Below the pieces are notes generated by a model. That model searched no databases and had not been told where the DNA came from. It saw only the letters and a list, made by a program, of their open reading frames with translations. From Escherichia phage ST2: a stretch of DNA of 64,000 nucleotides. Made by a program: the position numbers and the translations under genes. Shown here piece by piece: positions 9,819 through 59,542 of this stretch (position 1 is its first letter; each line of letters begins with the position of its first letter). The stretch lies in the sequence record OM982647; one strand, 5' to 3'.

Positions 9819-10184
9819 TTAGATATCGAATTCGTTAAGAACTACATCAAAGATTGCTTCGAGATGTTCAGGTTTAGCTCGGTTACTCAGGATATGACGA
9901 ATCCAAGTTTTAACCAGAAGTTTACGATTAACACCATTCCAGCAAGGATGAGTACCTAAATCACGTTGACGGAAATCGTCATCTAATGCAATTTTGAAGT
10001 TGGAACCTTCCATCGTGATTGAAACCGTGATGCCGTTTTCAAATCGCATATAAACGTAATTAGGAGTCATGCACTGTTCGATTTCACAAACTGAACCGTT
10101 ATTATGCTTCCATAAGCAAATAACTTCAGAAGAACCAGCGATACCGTTAGAAACATATTTACGTTCGAAGTTGGTGTAGTTCAT
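9819..10184 (-). CDS. Hypothetical protein
   Basis: 121-aa ORF with own early promoter. Confidence 0.45.
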   Translation of the reverse strand: MNYTNFERKYVSNGIAGSSEVICLWKHNNGSVCEIEQCMTPNYVYMRFENGITVSITMEGSNFKIALDDDFRQRDLGTHPCWNGVNRKLLVKTWIRHILSNRAKPEHLEAIFDVVLNEFDI

Positions 10185-10221
10185 TTTATTCTCCAGATGT
10201 TTAAGTTGTTTGTTGGTACAG

Positions 10222-10256
10222 GTCTATAATAACATAACCTGTACCAAAGTAAACAT
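10222..10256 (-). promoter_or_regulatory. T4-type early promoter with 8-bp inverted repeat flanking -10
   Basis: GTTTAC, 17-nt spacer, TATTAT; GGTACAGG/CCTGTACC arms at 10215..10245. Confidence 0.5.
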
Positions 10257-10258
10257 TT

Positions 10259-10630
10259 TTATTTGATTTTTGTCCACTTAGCTGAATCAATAACACCTTT
10301 TGCTTTAATCTTCTCAATTAATGACTCTGCGCGATTTCTGGCGTTTTCGTACCATACAACATCTTCAGAGTAACCAGTTTCTTCATCTTCGTAAGTTTTA
10401 GAACGAATACAGCCGTAAACTGTAGAATTCAGGCGGTAAATTTCACCAGTGAAAAAGTTTTCGATTTCGATATGATAACAAAAATCGTCTGAAGGGCCAT
10501 CAGGAGTTGTACAATAAACCACATCACCTTGAACTGAACGAACCATCCACTGTAACTCGTTAACAACTTGAGATTTATATCCATCATGGTCGCGGCATTT
10601 AATTGTAGCATTTAAATTGATAGTGTTCAT
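10259..10630 (-). CDS. Hypothetical protein
   Basis: 123-aa ORF with own early promoter. Confidence 0.45.
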   Translation of the reverse strand: MNTINLNATIKCRDHDGYKSQVVNELQWMVRSVQGDVVYCTTPDGPSDDFCYHIEIENFFTGEIYRLNSTVYGCIRSKTYEDEETGYSEDVVWYENARNRAESLIEKIKAKGVIDSAKWTKIK

Positions 10631-10664
10631 TTTATTCTCCGGTTGTTTTATTGATTAGGTGGTA

Positions 10665-10702
10665 CAAGTCTATAGTAACACATCCTACAGGAGAGTAAAC
10701 AT
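10665..10702 (-). promoter_or_regulatory. T4-type early promoter
   Basis: GTTTAC (10695..10700 revcomp), -10 TACTATAG. Confidence 0.45.
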
Positions 10703-10736
10703 CTTTTTAAACTTTTTCTGCCCTAAACGCACAAAA

Positions 10737-16019: not shown

Positions 16020-16020
<1 letters not shown>

Positions 16021-16319
16021 TATTTTATTCCTAAGAAAGTTTCAAGAATACGAATGTTATGCTCGCGCCGGTCTTTATTAATTTCAGCAACGTTTTTATT
16101 AATTGACGTACTTCTAACGTTTGAAGAAATAAATTTAATCATATGACTTTTGAGTTGTTGCAAATCCAACCCTTTTTCTTTAGCAGCTTTACGAAGAGCT
16201 TTACCTGCTTCATCTAGTGCCTTTGCTGCATCTTTATCATAATTGCCAAGTGACATTCCACGGCAGATATCAATATACTCATCCGACCGTTTGATGTAAT
16301 TCTCTAGTAATGTTTTCAT
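16020..16319 (-). CDS. Hypothetical protein
   Basis: 99-aa ORF, SD GAGGAAATCTAA. Confidence 0.45.
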
Positions 16320-16342
16320 TTAGATTTCCTCAATTATCCATA

Positions 16343-16379
16343 GGAGCATTATACTCTGCTCCCGAGAGTTTGTAAACTA
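16343..16379 (-). promoter_or_regulatory. T4-type early promoter with palindrome GGAGCA/TGCTCC flanking TATAAT
   Basis: GTTTACA, then TATAAT; near-identical copy at 44664..44700. Confidence 0.5.
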
Positions 16380-16601
16380 TTTTACTAAAGATTCAATATA
16401 CTCATGAAGAGCTTTAGTCGCTACTGCCCACTTATTCTGATATTCATTTTTCAGATTAGCACGAGACTGAACTAACAAGCGGTCATTAGTCGGAGGCAAA
16501 GATTCTAATCGTTGAATCTGGCGCCCATAAATCATAGCCGCCATTTCAGATTCATAGATAAGCCCTTTAATGTATTCATGCTGTTCTTTAGTCATTGGCA
16601 T
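16377..16601 (-). CDS. Hypothetical protein
   Basis: 74-aa ORF. Confidence 0.4.
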   Translation of the reverse strand: MPMTKEQHEYIKGLIYESEMAAMIYGRQIQRLESLPPTNDRLLVQSRANLKNEYQNKWAVATKALHEYIESLVK

Positions 16602-24923: not shown

Positions 24924-24947
24924 TTTATTCTCCTTCACTTTTATTTG

Positions 24948-24990
24948 ATAGGGCTACTATAACATAGCCCTATCTTGTTATAAACTACTT
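24948..24990 (-). promoter_or_regulatory. Early promoter with 9-bp palindrome ATAGGGCTA/TAGCCCTAT flanking -10
   Basis: GTTTATA, 17-nt spacer, TATAGT. Confidence 0.45.
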
Positions 24991-25377
24991 TTTAAAAGTT
25001 TTTTGCAAAAGTTCGATGATTTCGTCGACGTTGGTTTCATCTACGATACAATGGATTTTTGTTACACCTAAAGTTATACCTTCGTTAGAAGGTTGAGGCT
25101 TTACTAAATCTACCTCAGTAAAGTATTTGAACTCGTCAGGATAAATCTCAAAATAAGTTTCAATTTCACCACCGGCAGAACATACAGTACCATCTTCCAT
25201 AGTTACACTTACTACGTTTGACGTATCGCTATCATAATCAGGTTCCATTCCGTTTACAACAAAACTAGGCCCGTGGAGTTCAATCAATTTTAACATCTTA
25301 GCGTTATTGTGTGGTGCTTCTTGAACAAAGTCATCTTTAAATAAAGGGTTAATGATATAAGATTTTCCGATTTCCAT
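24985..25377 (-). CDS. Hypothetical protein
   Basis: 130-aa ORF, SD GAGGAAATC. Confidence 0.45.
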   Translation of the reverse strand: MEIGKSYIINPLFKDDFVQEAPHNNAKMLKLIELHGPSFVVNGMEPDYDSDTSNVVSVTMEDGTVCSAGGEIETYFEIYPDEFKYFTEVDLVKPQPSNEGITLGVTKIHCIVDETNVDEIIELLQKTFKK

Positions 25378-27495: not shown

Positions 27496-27760
27496 AAAGC
27501 TCGACTACCTCTTCGTTTTCAGCTTCAAATTGGTCACGAGCGTCTTTATGATAAAGAGCTAACAAACGATTAAACATTTTTCCATCGACACCAAGCTCTT
27601 CTTTAGCACGAGTACGAATGTCTTTAATCAGTTCGTTATAACCAGAAATTTTAAGTTTGTTATCGGAAGCTTCCTTGACTAGTTTAGCCAGTTCTTCACC
27701 ATGCACATCTTGATTAAATTCAACTGCTTCTTTCTTAGCCATGTTTACCTCAGAATTCAT
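27473..27760 (-). CDS. dsbA: dsDNA-binding protein DsbA-like
   Basis: 95-aa ORF between rnh and 33. Confidence 0.55.
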   Translation of the reverse strand: MNSEVNMAKKEAVEFNQDVHGEELAKLVKEASDNKLKISGYNELIKDIRTRAKEELGVDGKMFNRLLALYHKDARDQFEAENEEVVELYDTVFTK

Positions 27761-28667
27761 TAATTACACTTGTTAATTTAGAAAGACCAGATTTTACAAA
27801 GTATGAATAAATCTTGCCTTTAGGTTGTTGTTTATATGAGTTATAATACTCTATAATGGTTGAAGCAATATTATCAGGGATATAATCAAAATCAATGAGA
27901 ACCAAATTTTCTTGGTACCGTTTATATTCTTCTGCACTTAATAATACTTCAGCTTGAGAACGATCATTGGCAATTGCTTCAATGATCGTTGTTTTCATGC
28001 TTGGAGTTCGTTCGCCTTCAACTCGAGTAAACCAGAAATCACCACGAACTCGAACAGACGCAACACCATCTTTACGGTCGCCTTTAAGAATTTTAGTCAT
28101 GCAATCAATTTCGGCAGAACCATTCTTAATTTTAACCCATTTTTTCTGCGGTGGTGACCACTGTTTAACGTTAGGGTATTTGTGTAATTGTGTAAAGTCA
28201 CCATCTGATGCAACAATACATACCTTATGACCAGCTAATGACAAATATTTAGTTAATACACCGATATGGTCATCCGCTTCATACTTGTCAATATCCATTA
28301 CAACGTATGGCATGTATTTCTTAATCTCATCAACAACTTGACGGAGCGCAGTAAAATATCCTTCCCAATCCCACTTTGAAGCTTCACGATCGGTTTTACG
28401 ATTTTTCTTGTAATAGTAAGCAAAGTCACGACGCCAATAACCTGAAGTAGCATTATCCATACACAATACAAATTTTGTATAGCCTTGCTTACGGAACATC
28501 ACTACGTTTTTACGAATTGAATTCAAGATTACATGGCGAACCATCGGAACAGTAATTTTATCGCCGTCTTCAAAGTTGTTTAATGCAGCTGCCAATGCAA
28601 TGTTACTAAAGTCGGCAAGTGCAATACCTTCTTTGTAATCTTCATCCAACATCATTTCTAAATCCAT
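27750..28667 (-). CDS. rnh: RNase H / 5'-3' exonuclease
   Basis: 305 aa as in T4; FEN-family acidic motifs (VVMDIDKYEADD, SDGDFTQL). Confidence 0.9.
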   Translation of the reverse strand: MDLEMMLDEDYKEGIALADFSNIALAAALNNFEDGDKITVPMVRHVILNSIRKNVVMFRKQGYTKFVLCMDNATSGYWRRDFAYYYKKNRKTDREASKWDWEGYFTALRQVVDEIKKYMPYVVMDIDKYEADDHIGVLTKYLSLAGHKVCIVASDGDFTQLHKYPNVKQWSPPQKKWVKIKNGSAEIDCMTKILKGDRKDGVASVRVRGDFWFTRVEGERTPSMKTTIIEAIANDRSQAEVLLSAEEYKRYQENLVLIDFDYIPDNIASTIIEYYNSYKQQPKGKIYSYFVKSGLSKLTSVINEF

Positions 28668-28745
28668 ATGAACCTCTTGTTCAGTTAGTCAACTTGGACT
28701 ATAGTAACATACTAGTTCGAAAGCGTAAATAGTCTTTTACTCATT

Positions 28746-28787: not shown

Positions 28788-31700
28788 ATGGTTGACATCA
28801 AACGTAAGTTCAGGGCCGAAGATGGTCTTGACGCAGGCGGTGATAAGATAGTTAACGTTGCGCTTGCTGACCGCACAGTTGGCACCGATGGCGTGAACGT
28901 TGACTTTTTGGTGCAAGAAAACACCGTACAGAATTATGACGATACGCGCGCGTATACAAAAGATTTTATTGTTCTTTATGATAATCGTTTTTATCAAGCT
29001 TTAAGCGATATTCCAGCTCCGGCAGGCCCTTTCTCTTTGGCTAAATGGAAGGCAACTCGTACAGATGCAGAATGGATTACAGTTCAAGGCGGAGATTTCC
29101 AATTATCAGTAGGTAACTCTATTGCGGTTGATACTTCAGCTGGCACTGATATTAATTTCACTTTGCCTCAAAATCCTTTAGATGGCGATACAGTTATTTT
29201 GTCTGATATTGGCGGTAGAGTAGGCTATGTAAAAGTTCAAATTACTGCAGCGGCTCAAAGTATTGTAGACTTTAGAGGACAACAGGTTCGTTCAGTTTTA
29301 ATGACGCACCCAAAATCTAAAATGGTCTTCATTTTTAGCAACCGCCTATGGCAAATGTATGTTTCTGATTACGAACGTAATGCAGTCACAGTAACTCCTG
29401 CCACGCCATATCAAGCGCAACCTAATGATTTTATCATTCGACGTTTTACATCAGCCGCTCCTATTAATATTACATTGCCTCGTAATGCTAATAATGGCGA
29501 TATTATTAATTTAGTGGATTTAGACAAATTAAACCCATTATATCACACAATTGTCAAAACTTACGATGAAACAACTTCTATACGAGAAGCTGGTGTTCAT
29601 GTAGCAGAAGGACGTAATACTGCGGAAGCATTCTTTGTTTATGATTCTGCCAATAGTTTATGGCGTGTTTGGGAAGGTGACCAGAAATCTCGTTTACGTA
29701 TAGTTCGTAATGATACTGATTTACGCCCTAATGAAGAAGTTCTTGTTTTTGGAACTAATAATGATACAATCTCGACGGTAAATCTTACTTTGCCTACAGA
29801 TATTTTGTCTGGCGATACTGTTAAAATATCGTTGAATTATATGCGTAAAGGGCAAACTGTAAAAATTAAAGCTGCTGAAGGCGATACAATTGCTAGCAGT
29901 ATTTCTTTATTACAGTTCCCAAAACGTTCGGAGTATCCACCTGATGCACAATGGGTTTCTGTTAGTGAGCTGGAATTTAATGGTGATACTTCGTATGTAC
30001 CTGTACTTGAGTTATCTTATATAGAAGATTATTCATCTGAAACAAAATATTGGGTAGTTCAACAAAACACCGTAACCGTCGAACGAGTCGATGCATCGAG
30101 CAATACCACTCGAGCTCGTTTAGGTGTTATTGCTCTTGCTTCTCAAGCGCAAGCAAATGTCGATTTAGAAAATGCTCCTGGTAAAGAACTGGCTATTACT
30201 CCGGAAACATTAGCAAATCGTACAGCAACTGAAACTCGTCGTGGTATTGCTCGTATTGCAACAACTGCACAAGTTAACCAGAATACCGATTTTGCATTCC
30301 AAGACGACTTGATTATTTCTCCTAAGAAATTGAACGAACGTACAGCAACCGAAACCCGTAGAGGTGTTGCTGAAGTTGCAACTCAGGCTGAAACTAATGC
30401 CGGAACAGATGACACCACTATTATTACTCCTAAGAAATTGGATGCCCGTCAAGGTTCTGAAGTTTTATCTGGTATTGTAAAATACACATCTACGACTGGT
30501 ACTACAGCTGCTACTATTCGTGGTAATGCTGGGACTAACGTTTATAACAAAGCCGTAGATAATTTAACTATTTCTCCAAAGGCCCTTGACCAATATAAAG
30601 CTACCCCTACTCAGCAGGGTGCAGTAATTCTTGCTATTGAAAGTGAAGTTATCGCTGGCGAATCACAGGCCGGTTGGGCTAATGCTGTAGTGACCCCTGA
30701 AACTCTGCATAAGAAAACTTCTACTGATGGACGTATTGGTTTAATTGAAATTGCTACGCAAGCAGAAACTAACACTGGAACTGATTATACTAGAGCAGTA
30801 ACGCCTAAGACGTTAAACGATAGGAAAGCTACGGAAGGATTATCTGGCATAGCCGAAATTGCTACGCAAGTTGAATTTGATACTGGAACTGATGATACTC
30901 GTATCTCGACTCCACTGAAAATTAAAACTCATTTTGATTCTTCTGACCGTACCAGTGTTAATTCTGATTCCGGACTTATTGAAGAAGGAACCTTGTGGAA
31001 CCATTATACTCTTGATATTTCTAAAGCAAATGAAACACAACGTGGTACACTTCGCGTAGCGACCCAGGCAGAATCTAATGCAGGAACTTTAGATGATGTT
31101 CTTATTACTCCTAAAAAGCTTTTAGGGACTAAGTCCACTGAAACGTCTGAAGGCGTAATTAAGGTTGCTACTCAGGCTGAAACTGTAACAGGAACTTCTG
31201 CTAATACTGCTGTATCACCTAAGAATTTAAAATGGATTGTTCAATCAGAACCATCATGGACTGCTACTACGGCAATTCGTGGATTCGTTAAAACTTCATC
31301 TGGTTCTATTACATTTGTTGGTAATGATACAGTTGGTTCAACACAATCTTTAGAATCATATGAGAAAAATAGCTATGCGGTATCACCATATGAATTAAAC
31401 CGTGTACTTGCTAACTACTTACCGTTGAAAGCTAAAGCAGCTGATAGTAATTTGTTAGATGGTCTAGATTCTCTTCAGTTCATCCGTAGAGACATCGACC
31501 AGACGGTTAATGGTTCTTTAAGTCTTACTAAACAGACCAACCTGAGTGCTCCTTTAGTATCTACAAGCACTGCTTCTTTTGGTTCCGAAGCATCTGTTAC
31601 TCGTAGATTAACTCTTAATGATTCTAGCGGTTCTGAAATAATTTTCACTAAAGGAACCCAATCTCTTAGTAATAAAGAGAATTTCGTTGTTAGAGCATGG

Positions 31701-32621
31701 GGTAATAGCGCTACAGATGGTGCCCGTGATACAGTATTTGAAGCGGGTGATGAAACCGGATACCATTTCTATTCTCAGCGCGCTGCTGATAATAGAGTAT
31801 CATTTAATATTAATGGAACACTTTATTCAACAGGTATTGTTTCTACAAATGGATTAAATGTTACAGGTGTTTCTACCTTTACAGGGCCTATTAGTGCTAC
31901 AGGCGAAATTGTTTCTAGTTCTCCTATTGCATTCAGAGCTATTAACGGTAACTATGGTGTTATGCTTTATAATGCTGGTAACAGTTCTTATATTGCATTA
32001 ACTAACTCAGGTGACCAGACCGGGACGTTTAATAACTTACGCCCGATCACGATTAACAACGCCACAGGCTTAGTTCGTCTTGACAATGGTGTTCAAATCA
32101 CGAGTGGTGCAACAATAACTACCGGTGGATTAACTGTAAATAACAGAATTATTTCTAACGGCGTTAAAACTGCCACTGTTTATACCGATAAACCAACAGC
32201 TTCTACTGTAGGTTTTTGGTCTATTGACATTAACGATTCTGCTGTATATAGCCAATTCCCTGGATACTGGACGCGTGATAACAAAGGTAACCGTGACCAA
32301 GAAATTAAATATCCTGGTACTTTGACTCAATTCGGTAATAGCTTAGATTCACTTTATCAGGATTGGATTTGTTATCCTACAGGTGCAAATGGTGGTAGCA
32401 TTCGATATACTCGTACCTGGCAGAAAAATAAAGATGCTTGGACTTCATTTGCAATGGTATTTGATAGTGGCAACCCACCTTCACCTAGCGATGTTGGTGC
32501 TATACCATCTGATAATGCTGTTATTGGAAACCTTACTATTCGAGACTTCTTACAATTAGGAAATGTGAGAATTGTTCCAGACCCGGTTAACAAAACAGTT
32601 AAATTTATATGGGTTGAATAA
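28788..32621 (+). CDS. 34: Long tail fiber proximal subunit
   Basis: 1277 aa (T4 1289); internal repeat motifs; first gene of 34-35-36-37 late cluster. Confidence 0.85.
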   Translation: MVDIKRKFRAEDGLDAGGDKIVNVALADRTVGTDGVNVDFLVQENTVQNYDDTRAYTKDFIVLYDNRFYQALSDIPAPAGPFSLAKWKATRTDAEWITVQGGDFQLSVGNSIAVDTSAGTDINFTLPQNPLDGDTVILSDIGGRVGYVKVQITAAAQSIVDFRGQQVRSVLMTHPKSKMVFIFSNRLWQMYVSDYERNAVTVTPATPYQAQPNDFIIRRFTSAAPINITLPRNANNGDIINLVDLDKLNPLYHTIVKTYDETTSIREAGVHVAEGRNTAEAFFVYDSANSLWRVWEGDQKSRLRIVRNDTDLRPNEEVLVFGTNNDTISTVNLTLPTDILSGDTVKISLNYMRKGQTVKIKAAEGDTIASSISLLQFPKRSEYPPDAQWVSVSELEFNGDTSYVPVLELSYIEDYSSETKYWVVQQNTVTVERVDASSNTTRARLGVIALASQAQANVDLENAPGKELAITPETLANRTATETRRGIARIATTAQVNQNTDFAFQDDLIISPKKLNERTATETRRGVAEVATQAETNAGTDDTTIITPKKLDARQGSEVLSGIVKYTSTTGTTAATIRGNAGTNVYNKAVDNLTISPKALDQYKATPTQQGAVILAIESEVIAGESQAGWANAVVTPETLHKKTSTDGRIGLIEIATQAETNTGTDYTRAVTPKTLNDRKATEGLSGIAEIATQVEFDTGTDDTRISTPLKIKTHFDSSDRTSVNSDSGLIEEGTLWNHYTLDISKANETQRGTLRVATQAESNAGTLDDVLITPKKLLGTKSTETSEGVIKVATQAETVTGTSANTAVSPKNLKWIVQSEPSWTATTAIRGFVKTSSGSITFVGNDTVGSTQSLESYEKNSYAVSPYELNRVLANYLPLKAKAADSNLLDGLDSLQFIRRDIDQTVNGSLSLTKQTNLSAPLVSTSTASFGSEASVTRRLTLNDSSGSEIIFTKGTQSLSNKENFVVRAWGNSATDGARDTVFEAGDETGYHFYSQRAADNRVSFNINGTLYSTGIVSTNGLNVTGVSTFTGPISATGEIVSSSPIAFRAINGNYGVMLYNAGNSSYIALTNSGDQTGTFNNLRPITINNATGLVRLDNGVQITSGATITTGGLTVNNRIISNGVKTATVYTDKPTASTVGFWSIDINDSAVYSQFPGYWTRDNKGNRDQEIKYPGTLTQFGNSLDSLYQDWICYPTGANGGSIRYTRTWQKNKDAWTSFAMVFDSGNPPSPSDVGAIPSDNAVIGNLTIRDFLQLGNVRIVPDPVNKTVKFIWVE
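30200..31230 (+). repeat. Imperfect in-frame tandem repeats inside gene 34
   Basis: Repeated peptide modules (T/A)ATETRRG(I/V)A..ATQA..N.GTD...I(T/S)PKKL at least 6 times. Confidence 0.5.
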
Positions 32622-41376: not shown

Positions 41377-42009
41377 TCACAGTACGTTAGTTACAAGGGT
41401 AATGATTTCTTTGGACACATTAGGGAAGTCAATGTAAGTATATTTACCACCGATCTTAATCTTAACATCATTTTCAAGAGAAGTAAACAGCTTTGATTCA
41501 GTTTCTGACATGTTGTATGCAAAGATTCTAAGAGAACCATCTCGACGAATTTCGATCTGACGAATACCTAGAACTCGTTTTGCAAATCGAACTTCTAAGT
41601 TACTACGGTTTTCGCCAATTTCTTTAACTTCAACTTTATCTTTAATATTTTCAAAAACAAAGTTTGCTAATTCATGCATTTCAGGAGTAACTCCACGTGC
41701 TTTTCTAGTGTTACGTTTCTGAAGAAGTTCTGGAGCATTTTCTTGGGCAAAGAGGTCTGCAGCTTTTTGGATAATATCCATTGCTTCGCCTGTTGCTACA
41801 AGTCCATCACCGGATTTTTCGACTAAACCTTTCTTAATCAATACACCAATGTTAGAGTTAACAACCGATGCATTGTATTCCGCTTCTAGAGCTTCACGGA
41901 CATTGGCAGCAGTGGTGAAGTTGTTCTTAATGATATAAACCATTATTGCAGCAGTTTTTTCATTCAGAGCGTTTTCAGAAGCTTTGATGATGTAAGTAAC
42001 TTTAGACAT
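41377..42009 (-). CDS. motA: Middle-transcription activator
   Basis: 210 aa (T4 211); MSKVTYIIKAS...NIGVLIKKGLVEKSGDGL as T4 MotA. Confidence 0.85.
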   Translation of the reverse strand: MSKVTYIIKASENALNEKTAAIMVYIIKNNFTTAANVREALEAEYNASVVNSNIGVLIKKGLVEKSGDGLVATGEAMDIIQKAADLFAQENAPELLQKRNTRKARGVTPEMHELANFVFENIKDKVEVKEIGENRSNLEVRFAKRVLGIRQIEIRRDGSLRIFAYNMSETESKLFTSLENDVKIKIGGKYTYIDFPNVSKEIITLVTNVL

Positions 42010-42066
42010 TTTATTTCTCCAAATTAGTATTTGTTTTGATAGGTCTATAATATCATGTTTGAAGCA
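42001..42066 (-). repeat. Promoter-leader module copy A (66 bp identical to 42320..42385)
   Basis: Exact 66-bp direct repeat spanning start codon, SD and early promoter -10. Confidence 0.8.
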
Positions 42067-42076
42067 AAAGTAAACT
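42045..42076 (-). promoter_or_regulatory. T4-type early promoter for motA
   Basis: GTTTAC, 17-nt spacer, TATTAT. Confidence 0.5.
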
Positions 42077-42112
42077 TTATTTTGGGCTCTTTTTCAAAAG
42101 CCCTGGTAAAAT

Positions 42113-42328
42113 TTACAAACTCATTTCTTTAATAAGGCTAATAAGTTTTGCCTTTTTAGAACGAAGCTTTTCTAAATGATGACCATTCGAACCGCGAACC
42201 ACTAAAGAATTGATTTCAACTTCTAAGAAATTTAATTCTTCAACAAGTGCTTTACGGAGAGCATTCATACCAGGTTTGACTTTACCGAAACGAGTAGTTG
42301 TGTTTTGGGTTAATTTCATTTTAGACAT
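42113..42328 (-). CDS. Hypothetical basic protein, 71 aa (start trimmed to ATG)
   Basis: ATG at 42328 with same leader as motA; track start runs through promoter. Confidence 0.45.
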   Translation of the reverse strand: MSKMKLTQNTTTRFGKVKPGMNALRKALVEELNFLEVEINSLVVRGSNGHHLEKLRSKKAKLISLIKEMSL

Positions 42329-42385
42329 TTTATTTCTCCAAATTAGTATTTGTTTTGATAGGTCTATAATATCATGTTTGAAGCA
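42320..42385 (-). repeat. Promoter-leader module copy B
   Basis: Exact 66-bp direct repeat of 42001..42066. Confidence 0.8.
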
Positions 42386-42420
42386 CATGTAAACTGTTTT
42401 GTGAGAAAAAATGCACAAAA

Positions 42421-44181: not shown

Positions 44182-44628
44182 TTAGTAACTCTGCAGAATG
44201 AATTTGAAATTATCTGCCAGAAGACGGTTCATTTCAGTGAGTGTTTGATATTCTGATGTATGGTTGCGAGTGAATGCCAGAGCCAATTGTCCTTTACCAT
44301 AACCAGTAGTCAGTGGTTTCATGTTCTTAGCTGCAACAAAGATTACATCATATTCAATATTGTTAGTGCCCATAGTGCGAGCTAGTTGCGAACGGCCTTG
44401 ACGAATGTGAGAAAGAATTGCATCCAACCCTTGTTTAGAACGTTGACGTCCTACAAAGAATCGTGCTGCTACTTGTCGCCAATCAGATGAACCTTTAACA
44501 AAGAAGTAAAAACCTTCACGAGAACGAAACTCTTTAGAAACTTCAGAACCGTATTCGCCATTGCGAACTACTGCAACAACTTCACCGCCAACTGCCAGAA
44601 GGTCTTTACGAGTTAAATATTTAGACAT
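44182..44628 (-). CDS. ndd: Nucleoid disruption protein
   Basis: 148 aa; ...[25 protein letters not shown]...[20 protein letters not shown]...[12 protein letters not shown] as T4 Ndd. Confidence 0.85.
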
Positions 44629-44666
44629 GCTAATTTCCTCAATTGATTAATGTTTTTGTAATCCAT

Positions 44667-44700
44667 GAGAGCATTATACTCTGCTCTCAAGAGTTTGTAC
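44667..44700 (-). promoter_or_regulatory. Early promoter for ndd; near-identical to module at 16343..16379
   Basis: GAGAGCATTATACTCTGCTCTC palindrome around TATAAT, -35 GTACAA variant. Confidence 0.45.
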
Positions 44701-44704
44701 AATT

Positions 44705-44905
44705 TTATTCGGTCATATCAGAACGTTCAAAAAGCTCTTCAACGGTTAAACATTCGGTGTCATCCTCAATAAAGAATCGGGTCCAACACGTTGGGGCGAT
44801 GCAGTTATGAGTTTGTCCGGCTATAGAAGCTACACGAATAAGCTGCTGACCATTATTCAGGACAAATTTTTCACCAATTTCAACATCTTTAAAAAGCTTA
44901 GCCAT
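44705..44905 (-). CDS. Hypothetical protein
   Basis: 66-aa ORF, SD GAGGAACACAAA. Confidence 0.45.
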   Translation of the reverse strand: MAKLFKDVEIGEKFVLNNGQQLIRVASIAGQTHNCIAPTCWTRFFIEDDTECLTVEELFERSDMTE

Positions 44906-44965
44906 TTTGTGTTCCTCATATTTTGATAGGACTACTATACCATAATCCTACCTTGATGTAAACAA

Positions 44966-45076
44966 TTAAATTACATTAAAATATGTTAAAGCCAACCATG
45001 TTCCAGTGAACGAACATGCGATGTAAAAACCCGTATCACAAATTGTTCTTAGTACAATAAGAAGTGCATTTTTCAT
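44966..45076 (-). CDS. Small hydrophobic peptide, 36 aa (not in ORF track)
   Basis: ATGA-coupled to upstream peptide; hydrophobic. Confidence 0.3.
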   Translation of the reverse strand: MKNALLIVLRTICDTGFYIACSFTGTWLALTYFNVI

Positions 45077-45419: not shown

Positions 45420-45438
45420 GATGTTATCCTCTTTTAGA

Positions 45439-45478
45439 TAGGACTACTATATCATAGTCCTACTTAGTTGTAAACACT
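45439..45478 (-). promoter_or_regulatory. Early promoter with 8-bp palindrome TAGGACTA/TAGTCCTA flanking -10
   Basis: GTTTACA, 17-nt spacer, TATAGT. Confidence 0.5.
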
Positions 45479-45487
45479 TTTATGAAA

Positions 45488-46045
45488 TTAAAGATGAAGA
45501 TACCACCCGTTGTAGTTGCTCTTGCGGACGATTTTCTTTAGGTCTTCATGGTCTCCCACGAACTTTATAGAATAGGAGAAGACGTCAGGTGAGGTTTCTT
45601 TGACATCTAATATAATAATGCAATCTGCGACTCGATGGTTCAAGAAGGGCCCTATATTGATTCCATTACCACCAGGATAATCACCACTGTATCCTGTGGT
45701 AACCGAAATCCATTTAGAATCTATCTGGTGCGTCTTGACTTCGACACGCAACCCGCAATATTTAGGATGAGCTAACACGTCCCATGCATACGTGTACGGG
45801 TCTTCGACGTCTTCAATACCTTTATTAACATATCCGTCTAGCCAATTTGCTACTACATACTCTGCAAAGACTGCAACCTTACAACGTCGAACAACGTCTT
45901 CTTTTATTTGACCTGGATCTTGTTTCAACGAATACCGAGCAGTATCAGCGATCTTAACCTTCATTTCGCTAGTCAAAAACTCATTCGACAGGATAAATGT
46001 CGGAAGACTCTTCAGCCTCAACAGTCCCAAGTTCGTCTTTACCAT
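45488..46045 (-). CDS. denB: Endonuclease IV-like (start uncertain; 185 aa from internal ATG)
   Basis: Position between ndd and rIIB and length 185 aa as T4 DenB; track start 46096 overlaps upstream ORF. Confidence 0.45.
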   Translation of the reverse strand: MVKTNLGLLRLKSLPTFILSNEFLTSEMKVKIADTARYSLKQDPGQIKEDVVRRCKVAVFAEYVVANWLDGYVNKGIEDVEDPYTYAWDVLAHPKYCGLRVEVKTHQIDSKWISVTTGYSGDYPGGNGINIGPFLNHRVADCIIILDVKETSPDVFSYSIKFVGDHEDLKKIVRKSNYNGWYLHL

Positions 46046-54084: not shown

Positions 54085-54125
54085 TTTTGATAGGTCTATA
54101 GTATCATAAACCAGAGGAGAAGTAA
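54085..54125 (-). promoter_or_regulatory. T4-type early promoter
   Basis: GTTTAC then GATACTATAGACC. Confidence 0.45.
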
Positions 54126-54131
54126 ACAACT

Positions 54132-54551
54132 TTATGCAAAAGATGCTGGACAATATTTTTTGATTTGGAACTCAGGAACTACCATGAACTGTCCAGCAAA
54201 AACAATGTTATAAAGCTTGACGCCATCTTCAACCCATTGGTCCGAAATAAAACCAGCAACTTTATTCGTTGTCCATGGAGACCCGTCAGTTGCAGCAGCA
54301 ATAGTAAATTCATGGTCTTTTACAACTAAAACAGATCTGCACAGTTTCCATTTGAACGCACGTTCTTCTGGCTCAATGAACTGGCTTGAGACGTAGCCAA
54401 TGTTGCCATCAGCATCACGAACTTTAACTTGATGTGGACTAAAGAGTCCACAACTTACAGAAAGAACTTCAACCAACTTCCCGGCAACTTTAGAGCGAGA
54501 AGCAACAGATACATATACGTAATCACCTGTAGAGAGATTTACAATATTCAT
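54132..54551 (-). CDS. Hypothetical protein, paralog 1 of tandem pair
   Basis: 139 aa; shares SRSK.AG.LVEV and GFISDQWVEDG.KLYNIVF.G.F.VV motifs with 54561..55016. Confidence 0.5.
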   Translation of the reverse strand: MNIVNLSTGDYVYVSVASRSKVAGKLVEVLSVSCGLFSPHQVKVRDADGNIGYVSSQFIEPEERAFKWKLCRSVLVVKDHEFTIAAATDGSPWTTNKVAGFISDQWVEDGVKLYNIVFAGQFMVVPEFQIKKYCPASFA

Positions 54552-58903: not shown

Positions 58904-58960
58904 TTATGTTTCTCCTGTGGTTGATAAAGATATAGTATCATCATCGGAAGAGTTTGTACA

Positions 58961-59542
58961 CTAAAAATTCAACATTTTCAAATGAATGATTTTGTATAAT
59001 CGAGATAAAGGGTCATATTCTAAGTCTTCAATTTCCACAATCTCAAATCTAGAGATACCTGAGACCATGTACTCTTGTTCAGATTCAATCATATCTAGGA
59101 CGTCAACACGCTTTTCTTCCATAACATGCTTAGGGTTCTTTCCGGCGAGTACAATGTTAACCATGTTTTGGTAGTAATCAAAAATGAATGGAGCATTCCT
59201 GAGACTAAGAATAGTGTACGTCTGATATTCCCATATCCCGGAGAATTGACGAGCTGTACTGAAATCAGTTGTGAACGATGTTACTCGTCCAGGAGACCAA
59301 TGGCATCCAACAGAAAGAAGGGAAAGACGTTCTGCTTCTTCTGGAGTTACACCACGGTAGAGTTCTACTGGTACTGTAGAAGTCATATGCTTACGAACAA
59401 GATGGTCTAATTCATAGTGGAAATCCGGGTCTTCCTTAGAATCGGTGCAAGCCCAGAGAATGTTTTGTTCTTGGCGGGTGAATTTGCTATCAATCAGATT
59501 TGTTAGGTATTCACGTTCTTGAAGTTCAGATTGACATGTCAT
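58961..59542 (-). CDS. ModA/ModB-like ADP-ribosyltransferase, paralog 2
   Basis: 193 aa; LYRG / SFTTDFS / ESEQEY; SD GGAGG. Confidence 0.6.
   Translation of the reverse strand: MTCQSELQEREYLTNLIDSKFTRQEQNILWACTDSKEDPDFHYELDHLVRKHMTSTVPVELYRGVTPEEAERLSLLSVGCHWSPGRVTSFTTDFSTARQFSGIWEYQTYTILSLRNAPFIFDYYQNMVNIVLAGKNPKHVMEEKRVDVLDMIESEQEYMVSGISRFEIVEIEDLEYDPLSRLYKIIHLKMLNF

Follow-up and report, generated by a model that had tools for sequence, protein, structure and literature searches.

A repeated early-promoter module with an embedded hairpin in an RB69-like Escherichia phage: a probable composite cassette of the PeSL type

The two intergenic sites described here lie in a stretch of 64,000 nucleotides of Escherichia phage ST2 (sequence record OM982647), which was analyzed as a whole and is called the window below. 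The source phage is a Mosigvirus, an RB69-like relative of T4, and its closest relative is PhAPEC2, to which the surroundings of site 1 and site 2 (1.1 kb each) are 99.5% and 97.7% identical, respectively. All genes at both sites are on the minus strand. Site 1 follows the PseT.1 homologue (ORF 16377..16601), whose TAG stop codon (16377..16379) provides with its G the first base of the promoter element GTTTAC, and precedes a gene for a 99-aa ORFan, the homologue of RB69ORF231c (16020..16319). A weak match of this ORF to TnsD (17.9 bits versus a cut-off of 32.4) was dismissed as noise. Site 2 follows the Ndd.1 homologue (ORF 44705..44905), which ends in a TAA stop codon (44705..44707), and precedes an ORF (44182..44628) that had been named ndd in the first-pass annotation of this DNA, a name borne out by its 60% identity to T4 Ndd. 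The two module copies occupy 16377..16336 (GTTTACAAACTCTCGGGAGCAGAGTATAATGCTCCTATGGAT) and 44702..44661 (TTGTACAAACTCTTGAGAGCAGAGTATAATGCTCTCATGGAT) of the minus strand. The sequences that the first-pass annotation had given for them are real, but its positions were about 2 nt off, and on the plus strand these sequences are found at 16337..16377 and 44662..44702.

Each copy has the elements of a promoter interleaved with the arms of an inverted repeat. At site 1, which reads ...GTAAAATAG-TTTACA-AACTCTCGGGAGCAGAG-TATAAT-GCTCCTATGGATAATTGAGGAAATCTAAATG on the minus strand, the -35 element (16371..16377) can be taken either as GTTTAC (16377..16372) or as TTTACA (16376..16371), the latter with a 17-nt spacer. 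It is followed by the left arm of the hairpin, G-GGAGCA (16357..16363, promoter positions about -21 to -15), by the -10 element TATAAT (16348..16353), the first five bases of which are located in the 8-nt loop GAGTATAA (16356..16349), and by the right arm TGCTCC-T (16342..16348), which is opened by the last T of the -10 element and lies in the discriminator region. The Shine-Dalgarno sequence GAGG (16331..16328) and the ATG (16319..16317) of the 99-aa ORFan come next (16317..16331 together). Site 2 reads ...GAATAAAAT-TGTACA-AACTCTTGAGAGCAGAG-TATAAT-GCTCTCATGGAT...TTGAGGAAATTAGCATG and is built in the same order: a -35 element (44696..44702) whose spacer has 17 nt if the element is taken as TGTACA (44701..44696) and 18 nt if it is taken as TTGTAC, the left arm TGAGAGCA (44682..44689), the -10 element TATAAT (44673..44678) inside the loop GAGTATAA (44681..44674), the right arm TGCTCTCA (44666..44673), and the Shine-Dalgarno sequence GAGG (44640..44637) with the ATG of ndd (44628..44626; 44626..44640 together). 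GAGGAAA and then ATG follow 29 nt past the -10 element at site 1 and 45 nt past it at site 2.

The TATAAT pointed out in the first-pass annotation is perfect at both sites, and with a 17-nt spacer the match to the sigma-70 consensus is 11/12 at site 1 (TTTACA/TATAAT) and 10/12 at site 2 (TGTACA/TATAAT). T4 early promoters have been described as a combination of an UP element, a GTTTAC -35 element, TGn and TATAAT (Hinton 2010, PMC2988021), and 57 early promoters, 13 of them before novel ORFs, were predicted in RB69 (Nolan et al. 2006, PMC1524935). The module resembles this class in its GTTTAC-type -35 element, which is exact at site 1 (-36 to -31), in its spacer of 17-18 nt, its TATAAT, its A/T-rich upstream sequence (86% A+T in the 22 nt upstream at site 1 and 68% at site 2) and its "additional regions of consensus". 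It differs from the class in that site 2 has TTGTAC/TGTACA in place of GTTTAC, and in that the TGn of an extended -10, which is common in the class but not strictly defining, was sought and found absent at both copies, where GAG precedes TATAAT. Judging from spacing, transcription would start at the A at 16341 (site 1) and at the A at 44666 (site 2), and both promoters are presumably early ones. The T4 RefSeq record has no promoter features annotated at motB or ndd. An overlapping late promoter was also considered and dropped, as the window copies (GGATAATTG, GGATTACAAA) lack TATAAA(A/T) after the module; this motif is present just past the module in some relatives (T4 motB, JS98).

The likeness between the two sites extends well past the generic consensus. 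They are identical at 36 of 42 positions overall and at 34 of 38 in the core from ACAAACTC to GGAT, and a pattern with the four variable bases left free matched exactly twice in the window, with no match expected from 100 shuffles. A repeat search of the window recovered the pair as a family of its own (D15, 85% identical over 46 nt), and a covariance model built from relatives gave scores of 76.3 and 68.8 bits for the two sites; the next-best match in the window reached 21.6 bits and had only the 5' half of the module in common. As a comparison set, 18 GTTTAC-type early promoters were compiled from the minus strand of the window, giving 153 pairs with a median identity of 50% and a 95th percentile of 65%; the pair of site 1 and site 2 (83% over 48 nt) was the second most similar of all, after two tandem promoters by motA. 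Both the near-identity of two distant loci and the conservation beyond -35 and -10 that had been proposed at first pass were thus upheld. The tandem promoters by motA belong to copies on the minus strand (42001-42084 and 42320-42403) that are 94% identical over 84 nt, are 319 bp apart and contain promoter, leader, ribosome-binding site and first codons; one copy precedes the MotA homologue (41377..42009), the other precedes a small ORF just upstream, and neither promoter has a hairpin. Another minus-strand promoter (58936-58971) has the module's 5' half alone (TAGTGTACAAACTCTT), followed by sequence of a different promoter class (TACTAT...TATCAAC), and resembles a chimera formed from two families of promoters.

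At site 1, the inverted repeat is GGAGCA/TGCTCC, with 6 bp and an additional G·T; at site 2 it is TGAGAGCA/TGCTCTCA, with 8 bp. When folded as RNA, site 1 gave -12.2 kcal/mol (z = -2.0), a modest stability equalled by 10 of 200 shuffles, and site 2 gave -14.6 kcal/mol (z = -3.9). All four core differences between the sites fall within the repeat and keep or improve pairing: one compensated G-C/A-T, one change of G·T to G-C, and one of a C/A mismatch to T-A. Relatives were gathered by scanning IMG/VR with ACAAACTC-N9-GAGTATAAT, the arms being left free, and after unrelated phages had been taken out, 27 distinct sequences were aligned, including the promoter upstream of T4's own motB (GGGACCA/TGGTCCC). 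In this alignment, 96.8% of the stem cells were paired, compared with 36-55% when the partners were slid by 1-3 columns. Five of the eight stem pairs showed changes on both sides, one pair occurring as GC, CG, AU, UA, GU and UG, and none of 500 shuffles reached the observed covariation score, although, the family members being related by descent, both the covariation and the wobble counts are higher than the number of truly independent events. Stems with matching partners included GAGAGCA, GGGAGCA, GGGACCA, GGGGTCA, GGGGCCA, GGGATCA, GAGGACA and GAGAGA(T), the compensatory arm variants being GAGCA/TGCTC, GACCA/TGGTC, GGTCA/TGACC, AGGACA/TGTCCT and others. This pattern indicates that the palindrome is a selected structure and that the arm sequence itself is not conserved. 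The columns of a possible outer helix, ACTCT/GGAGT, were set aside, as they are invariant through the sequence selection itself and provide no test of pairing, and a search of both sites against Rfam 15 gave no covariance-model match at E-values up to 1.

The departures from Watson-Crick pairing are themselves strand-biased. Wherever the inner seven positions of the module family deviate, the pair is G·T on the sense strand and never A·C; other hairpin-bearing promoter families (from the window and fetched loci) have 14 G·T and 1 A·C, compared with 21 and 29 in random segments of the same DNA. These raw counts include related sequences, and the number of independent events is estimated at about 12-13 G·T versus 1 A·C.

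A further line of evidence comes from the sequences that stand before ndd in other lineages. A search with a single Ndd protein recovered only near-identical phages, and the ndd-upstream regions were therefore collected through an alignment of Ndd proteins, with no requirement on DNA. A hairpin is present in every lineage sampled, past the stop codon of the preceding gene and ahead of the ndd ribosome-binding site. In four lineages the loop contains the -10 element, and the stem is different in each. In T4-like phages the hairpin is GGCCG(Y)(R)...(Y)GCGGCC, the -35 element being absent and the -10 element decayed (TATTCA), and one lineage has GGGCC-TTCG-GGCCC with no promoter. The T4 hairpin itself is the promoter-less GGCCGTG-TGTATTCA-TGCGGCC (3060-3100 of L073, equal to T4 166059-166099, minus strand). 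At four of the collected loci (L081, L084, L086 and L087) the hairpin is found about 80-40 nt upstream of ndd, and TGGAG or TGAGG directly follows the ndd-upstream hairpin in most lineages.

It had been suggested at first pass that the conserved stretch might be a binding site for an additional factor. In its most explicit form, a dimeric DNA-binding protein of phage or host would occupy half-sites flanking the -10 element and co-regulate the promoters; a palindrome laid over a core promoter is indeed the classic position for a repressor, and the window copies have most of their arm sequence in common. Such an operator would nevertheless have to accommodate at least six stems between the same flanks, some of them in one genome and always with a matching other arm, a G·T wobble confined to one strand, hairpins of unrelated sequence in the same register at other promoter families, and the replacement of the module before ndd by promoter-less UUCG and GGCCG hairpins. 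The compensatory arm changes, the sense-only G·T pairs and the promoter-less hairpins before ndd make an operator highly improbable, and the suggestion of a factor-binding site is not supported. The same three observations are the reason for reading the palindrome as a nucleic-acid structure, most likely an RNA hairpin of read-through transcripts.

Hairpins of this type appeared to be common at early promoters of the window. A hairpin with z <= -2.5, straddling the -10 element or located in the spacer, was detected at 10 of the 18 early promoters of the comparison set, and weaker spacer stems at 2 more (17783 and 3927). In a larger sample of 113 distinct promoter-like sequences, 47% had a helix score of at least 6, versus 7.8% of random 38-nt segments, and the loop spans the -10 element in 42 of the 53 helix-bearing sequences. 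A second promoter family (24940-24995, 45430-45485) differs from the module in sequence yet keeps its register: the stem has 8 bp, the loop has 8 nt, and the right arm begins with the last T of the -10 element. More broadly, this second family, GTTTAC...TATAGT, was observed on the minus strand at 24940-24995, 44921-44980, 45430-45492 and 54085-54144, with stems of 8-10 bp round the -10 element (e.g., GATAGGGCTA/TAGCCCTATC), z down to -7.8, and copies that differ by compensatory and G·T changes. The promoter at 28730, before the long tail-fibre gene, is the only early promoter with no same-strand upstream gene and has no hairpin, which fits a role of the hairpin in read-through RNA, though this is a single case. 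It is an early-type promoter (28701-28730, minus strand) located in the gap from which a minus-strand gene (27750..28667) and a plus-strand ORF (28788..32621, 1277 aa) diverge.

The selected structure could also act in DNA, as a hairpin or cruciform on the sense strand that helps the -10 element to melt, which would give a very strong promoter, or is a preferred site of recombination between cassettes, such as that which yields PeSL mini-circles. It is on the sense strand, as the non-template strand, that sigma recognizes single-stranded DNA, the module is found at indel junctions (see below), and G·T pairs are tolerated in single-stranded DNA as well. On the other hand, the left arm (-21 to -14) remains double-stranded in the open complex, cruciform extrusion is inefficient for 8-nt loops on stems of 6-8 bp, UUCG tetraloops are exceptionally stable in RNA and not in DNA, hairpins persist where there is no promoter at all, and the single promoter without a same-strand upstream gene, that at 28730, is also without a hairpin. 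A role in DNA is accordingly rated unlikely, and RNA is preferred over DNA because of the UUCG tetraloop and the one-strand wobble bias.

The module is widely dispersed. A 71-nt query found matches in 767 phage records, with the module at 3-4 places per Mosigvirus genome and also in Tequatrovirus, Dhakavirus, Gaprivervirus and Yersinia phages. Across related phages it stands directly before some nine or ten different genes, among them ndd, motB, the ORF231c homologue, a 160-172 aa ORF, a 197-aa ORF, a DUF7570 protein and a 114-aa ORF; except for ndd and motB, these downstream genes are ORFans or DUFs. The module is also associated with insertions and deletions. In T4, pseT.1 abuts pseT, with no module and neither ORF231c nor ORF230c, and the window has the module plus two ORFs at that place. 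L060 has the order ndd.1, module, 114-aa ORF, module, ndd, its two direct copies being 412 bp apart, and homology between L018 and L012 breaks exactly at the -35 element. Among JS98-like phages, in which the 160-172 aa gene directly follows the module, one phage is without this gene. Given its occurrence in several T-even genera, the variety of genes behind it and its presence at indel junctions, the portable promoter cassette put forward at first pass is an apt description. As a separate observation, the loss of the 160-172 aa gene at the JS98-like pseT locus (L020 compared with L010, L013 and L017) runs from start codon to start codon, with ...ATTATGA shared at the ends, and has the look of a microhomology event and not of recombination between module copies.

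The dispersal raises the question of whether descent could account for the whole pattern, a promoter having been recently copied or gene-converted to a second locus together with an inverted repeat that has no function of its own. Paralogous copies do sometimes share stem variants: GGGGTCA/TGACCCC is found at both the motB and the ndd loci of contig 2706795408, the Mosigvirus copies before ndd and before the 197-aa ORF have an identical core, and in L023 and L036 a stem variant is common to paralogous copies and absent from the orthologous copies in other genera. Such sharing implies copying between loci. Recent paralogy would explain the dispersal, but not the pairing that has been kept through both-side changes at five of eight positions, and it leaves without explanation why helices are roughly six times as frequent at early promoters as in random segments and why hairpins persist where the promoter has decayed. 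As a sufficient account it is therefore considered quite improbable.

An element class of this kind has already been described. PeSL (promoter-early stem-loop) cassettes of T4-type phages were reported by Arbiol et al. 2010 (PMC2839356) and Comeau et al. 2014 (PMC4122927). In RB49/phi1, the stem-loop mostly lies between -35 and -10 or over -10, the stem-loop of one RB49 PeSL, assayed by lacZ fusion, lowered read-through to the same degree as the rrnB T1 terminator, and recombination between PeSL copies gave rise to mini-circles (PMC2839356); PeSLs were later extended to T4/PST and KVP40/nt-1, the T4 ndd region being the worked example (PMC4122927). The module shares with PeSLs a -35 and -10 about 17 nt apart, a stem-loop within or over the promoter, a stop codon on the upstream side, and, at the 3' end, a ribosome-binding site and start codon that belong to the next gene, as well as many dispersed copies, ORFan neighbours, junctions of insertion, deletion or replacement, and ORFs enclosed between two copies. 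It is a further PeSL-type cassette and not a new kind of element. Several differences exist as well: PeSLs were described for RB49/phi1, T4/PST and KVP40/nt-1, whereas the module is found here in an RB69-like phage; the stems of RB49 are polyG/polyC, whereas those of the module are mixed, with 6-8 bp and a fixed 8-nt loop; and the stem-loops of T4/PST were placed "just upstream of the promoter" with an AGNA/TCNT consensus (PMC4122927), a geometry from which that of the module differs. A literature search found no paper joining PeSLs with RB69, and nothing usable on stem-loops in T4 early promoters or on genome-wide maps of T4 5' and 3' ends.

Taken as a whole, the module is best read, with a probability of about 0.7, as a composite of an early promoter, an RNA hairpin of the upstream transcript and a patch of homology for cassette exchange. 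Site 1 and site 2 would be paralogous copies of such a composite PeSL-type cassette, each with several signals crowded into the roughly 60 bp that separate two genes of the same strand. Host RNA polymerase would start about 7 nt past the -10 element, which is past the end of the right arm at site 1 and on the arm's last base at site 2, and with a start at or after the end of the right arm, transcripts from the module's own promoter would be without the hairpin. Read-through transcripts from upstream promoters would hold both arms and could fold it. The hairpin would then most likely attenuate read-through or shield the 3' end of the upstream transcript, insulating adjacent early units, and the promoter may have been fitted into the hairpin loop in a very compact genome. 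The recurring 40-60 bp may also serve, by recombination through the module, as a homology patch for the gain, loss and swap of gene cassettes. The promoter and the selected hairpin are the surer parts of this composite reading; the exact RNA function, attenuator or stabiliser, is less sure, there being no U-run after the stem. A scan for intrinsic terminators at both modules gave no match, and the stem is followed by UAUGGAU (site 1) or UGGAUUA (site 2), with no T/U run, so that if read-through stopped there, it would not do so at a canonical intrinsic terminator.

A stronger interpretation is that a hairpin held in fixed register across unrelated early-promoter families is a dedicated recognition element, beyond a passive attenuator. 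A ribonuclease or processing factor may cut early read-through transcripts at each promoter and thereby define mRNA ends, or a phage recombination function may use the module as an integron-like site of cassette exchange. This interpretation is regarded as rather improbable.

Hairpins enclosing a promoter are also present at the T4 genes e, soc, 49 and I-TevI, where a hairpin with an internal late promoter controls translation. The module resembles these cases in that the promoter is embedded in the hairpin and only upstream transcripts can fold it, but differs in that their hairpin masks the downstream ribosome-binding site, whereas that of the module leaves the Shine-Dalgarno sequence out. 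Masking of the ribosome-binding site as in T4 e, soc and 49 was examined as a candidate function and rejected: the stem ends 10-25 nt before GAGG, and the right arm could pair with it over at most 4 bp. Stable intercistronic C(UUCG)G hairpins in T4 mRNAs were reportedly described by Tuerk et al. in 1988. These are likewise short, stable hairpins between same-strand genes and on the sense RNA, and the ndd lineage with GGGCC-UUCG-GGCCC resembles them directly; they are without a promoter, whereas the loop of the module has 8 nt and doubles as the -10 element. Finally, the module is comparable to lambdoid morons, which are self-contained units of promoter, gene and terminator, with their own promoter for accessory genes between conserved genes. 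Morons have no conserved flanking repeat for exchange and are often in opposite orientation (PMC2839356), whereas in the case of the module the repeated promoter itself is the shared junction.

These findings have consequences for how T-even early promoters are read. The extra conservation in such promoters has been attributed to polymerase contacts, with stems unmentioned (PMC2988021, PMC1524935; the word "stem" occurs 0 times in PMC1524935). The present comparison suggests that it is likely to be due in part to the RNA hairpin of the upstream transcript and not to contacts with polymerase or another factor. New in this analysis are the extension of PeSL cassettes to RB69-like phages, the definition of the module sub-family and its membership, with the T4 motB promoter included, the statistics of compensatory change, and the sense-strand and UUCG evidence for a role in RNA. 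The modules also mark points of gain and loss of accessory genes in therapy phages, and they are predicted to be compact, strong promoter parts with a built-in insulator.

Some further repeated sequences were observed in the window. A promoter-and-leader unit occurs twice (10168-10278 and 10614-10724, 72% identical over 111 nt), one copy having a stem of 10-12 bp (TTGGTACAGGTT/GACCTGTACCAA) round the -10 element that is decayed in the other. Many minus-strand promoters belong to a second early-promoter class in which the stretch right after the -10 element is conserved, from TA(C/T)TAT-AGACCT(A/G)T(A/C)(A/C)... to ATCAA(A/C) (e.g., 42047-42075, 42366-42394, 54098-54127 and 10226-10254), which suggests a conserved initial transcribed sequence. 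Within the long tail-fibre-like ORF on the plus strand (28788..32621), four to six diverged direct repeats of 60-70 nt, 62-73% identical, were found at 30194-31205, and they probably represent a repeated protein motif.
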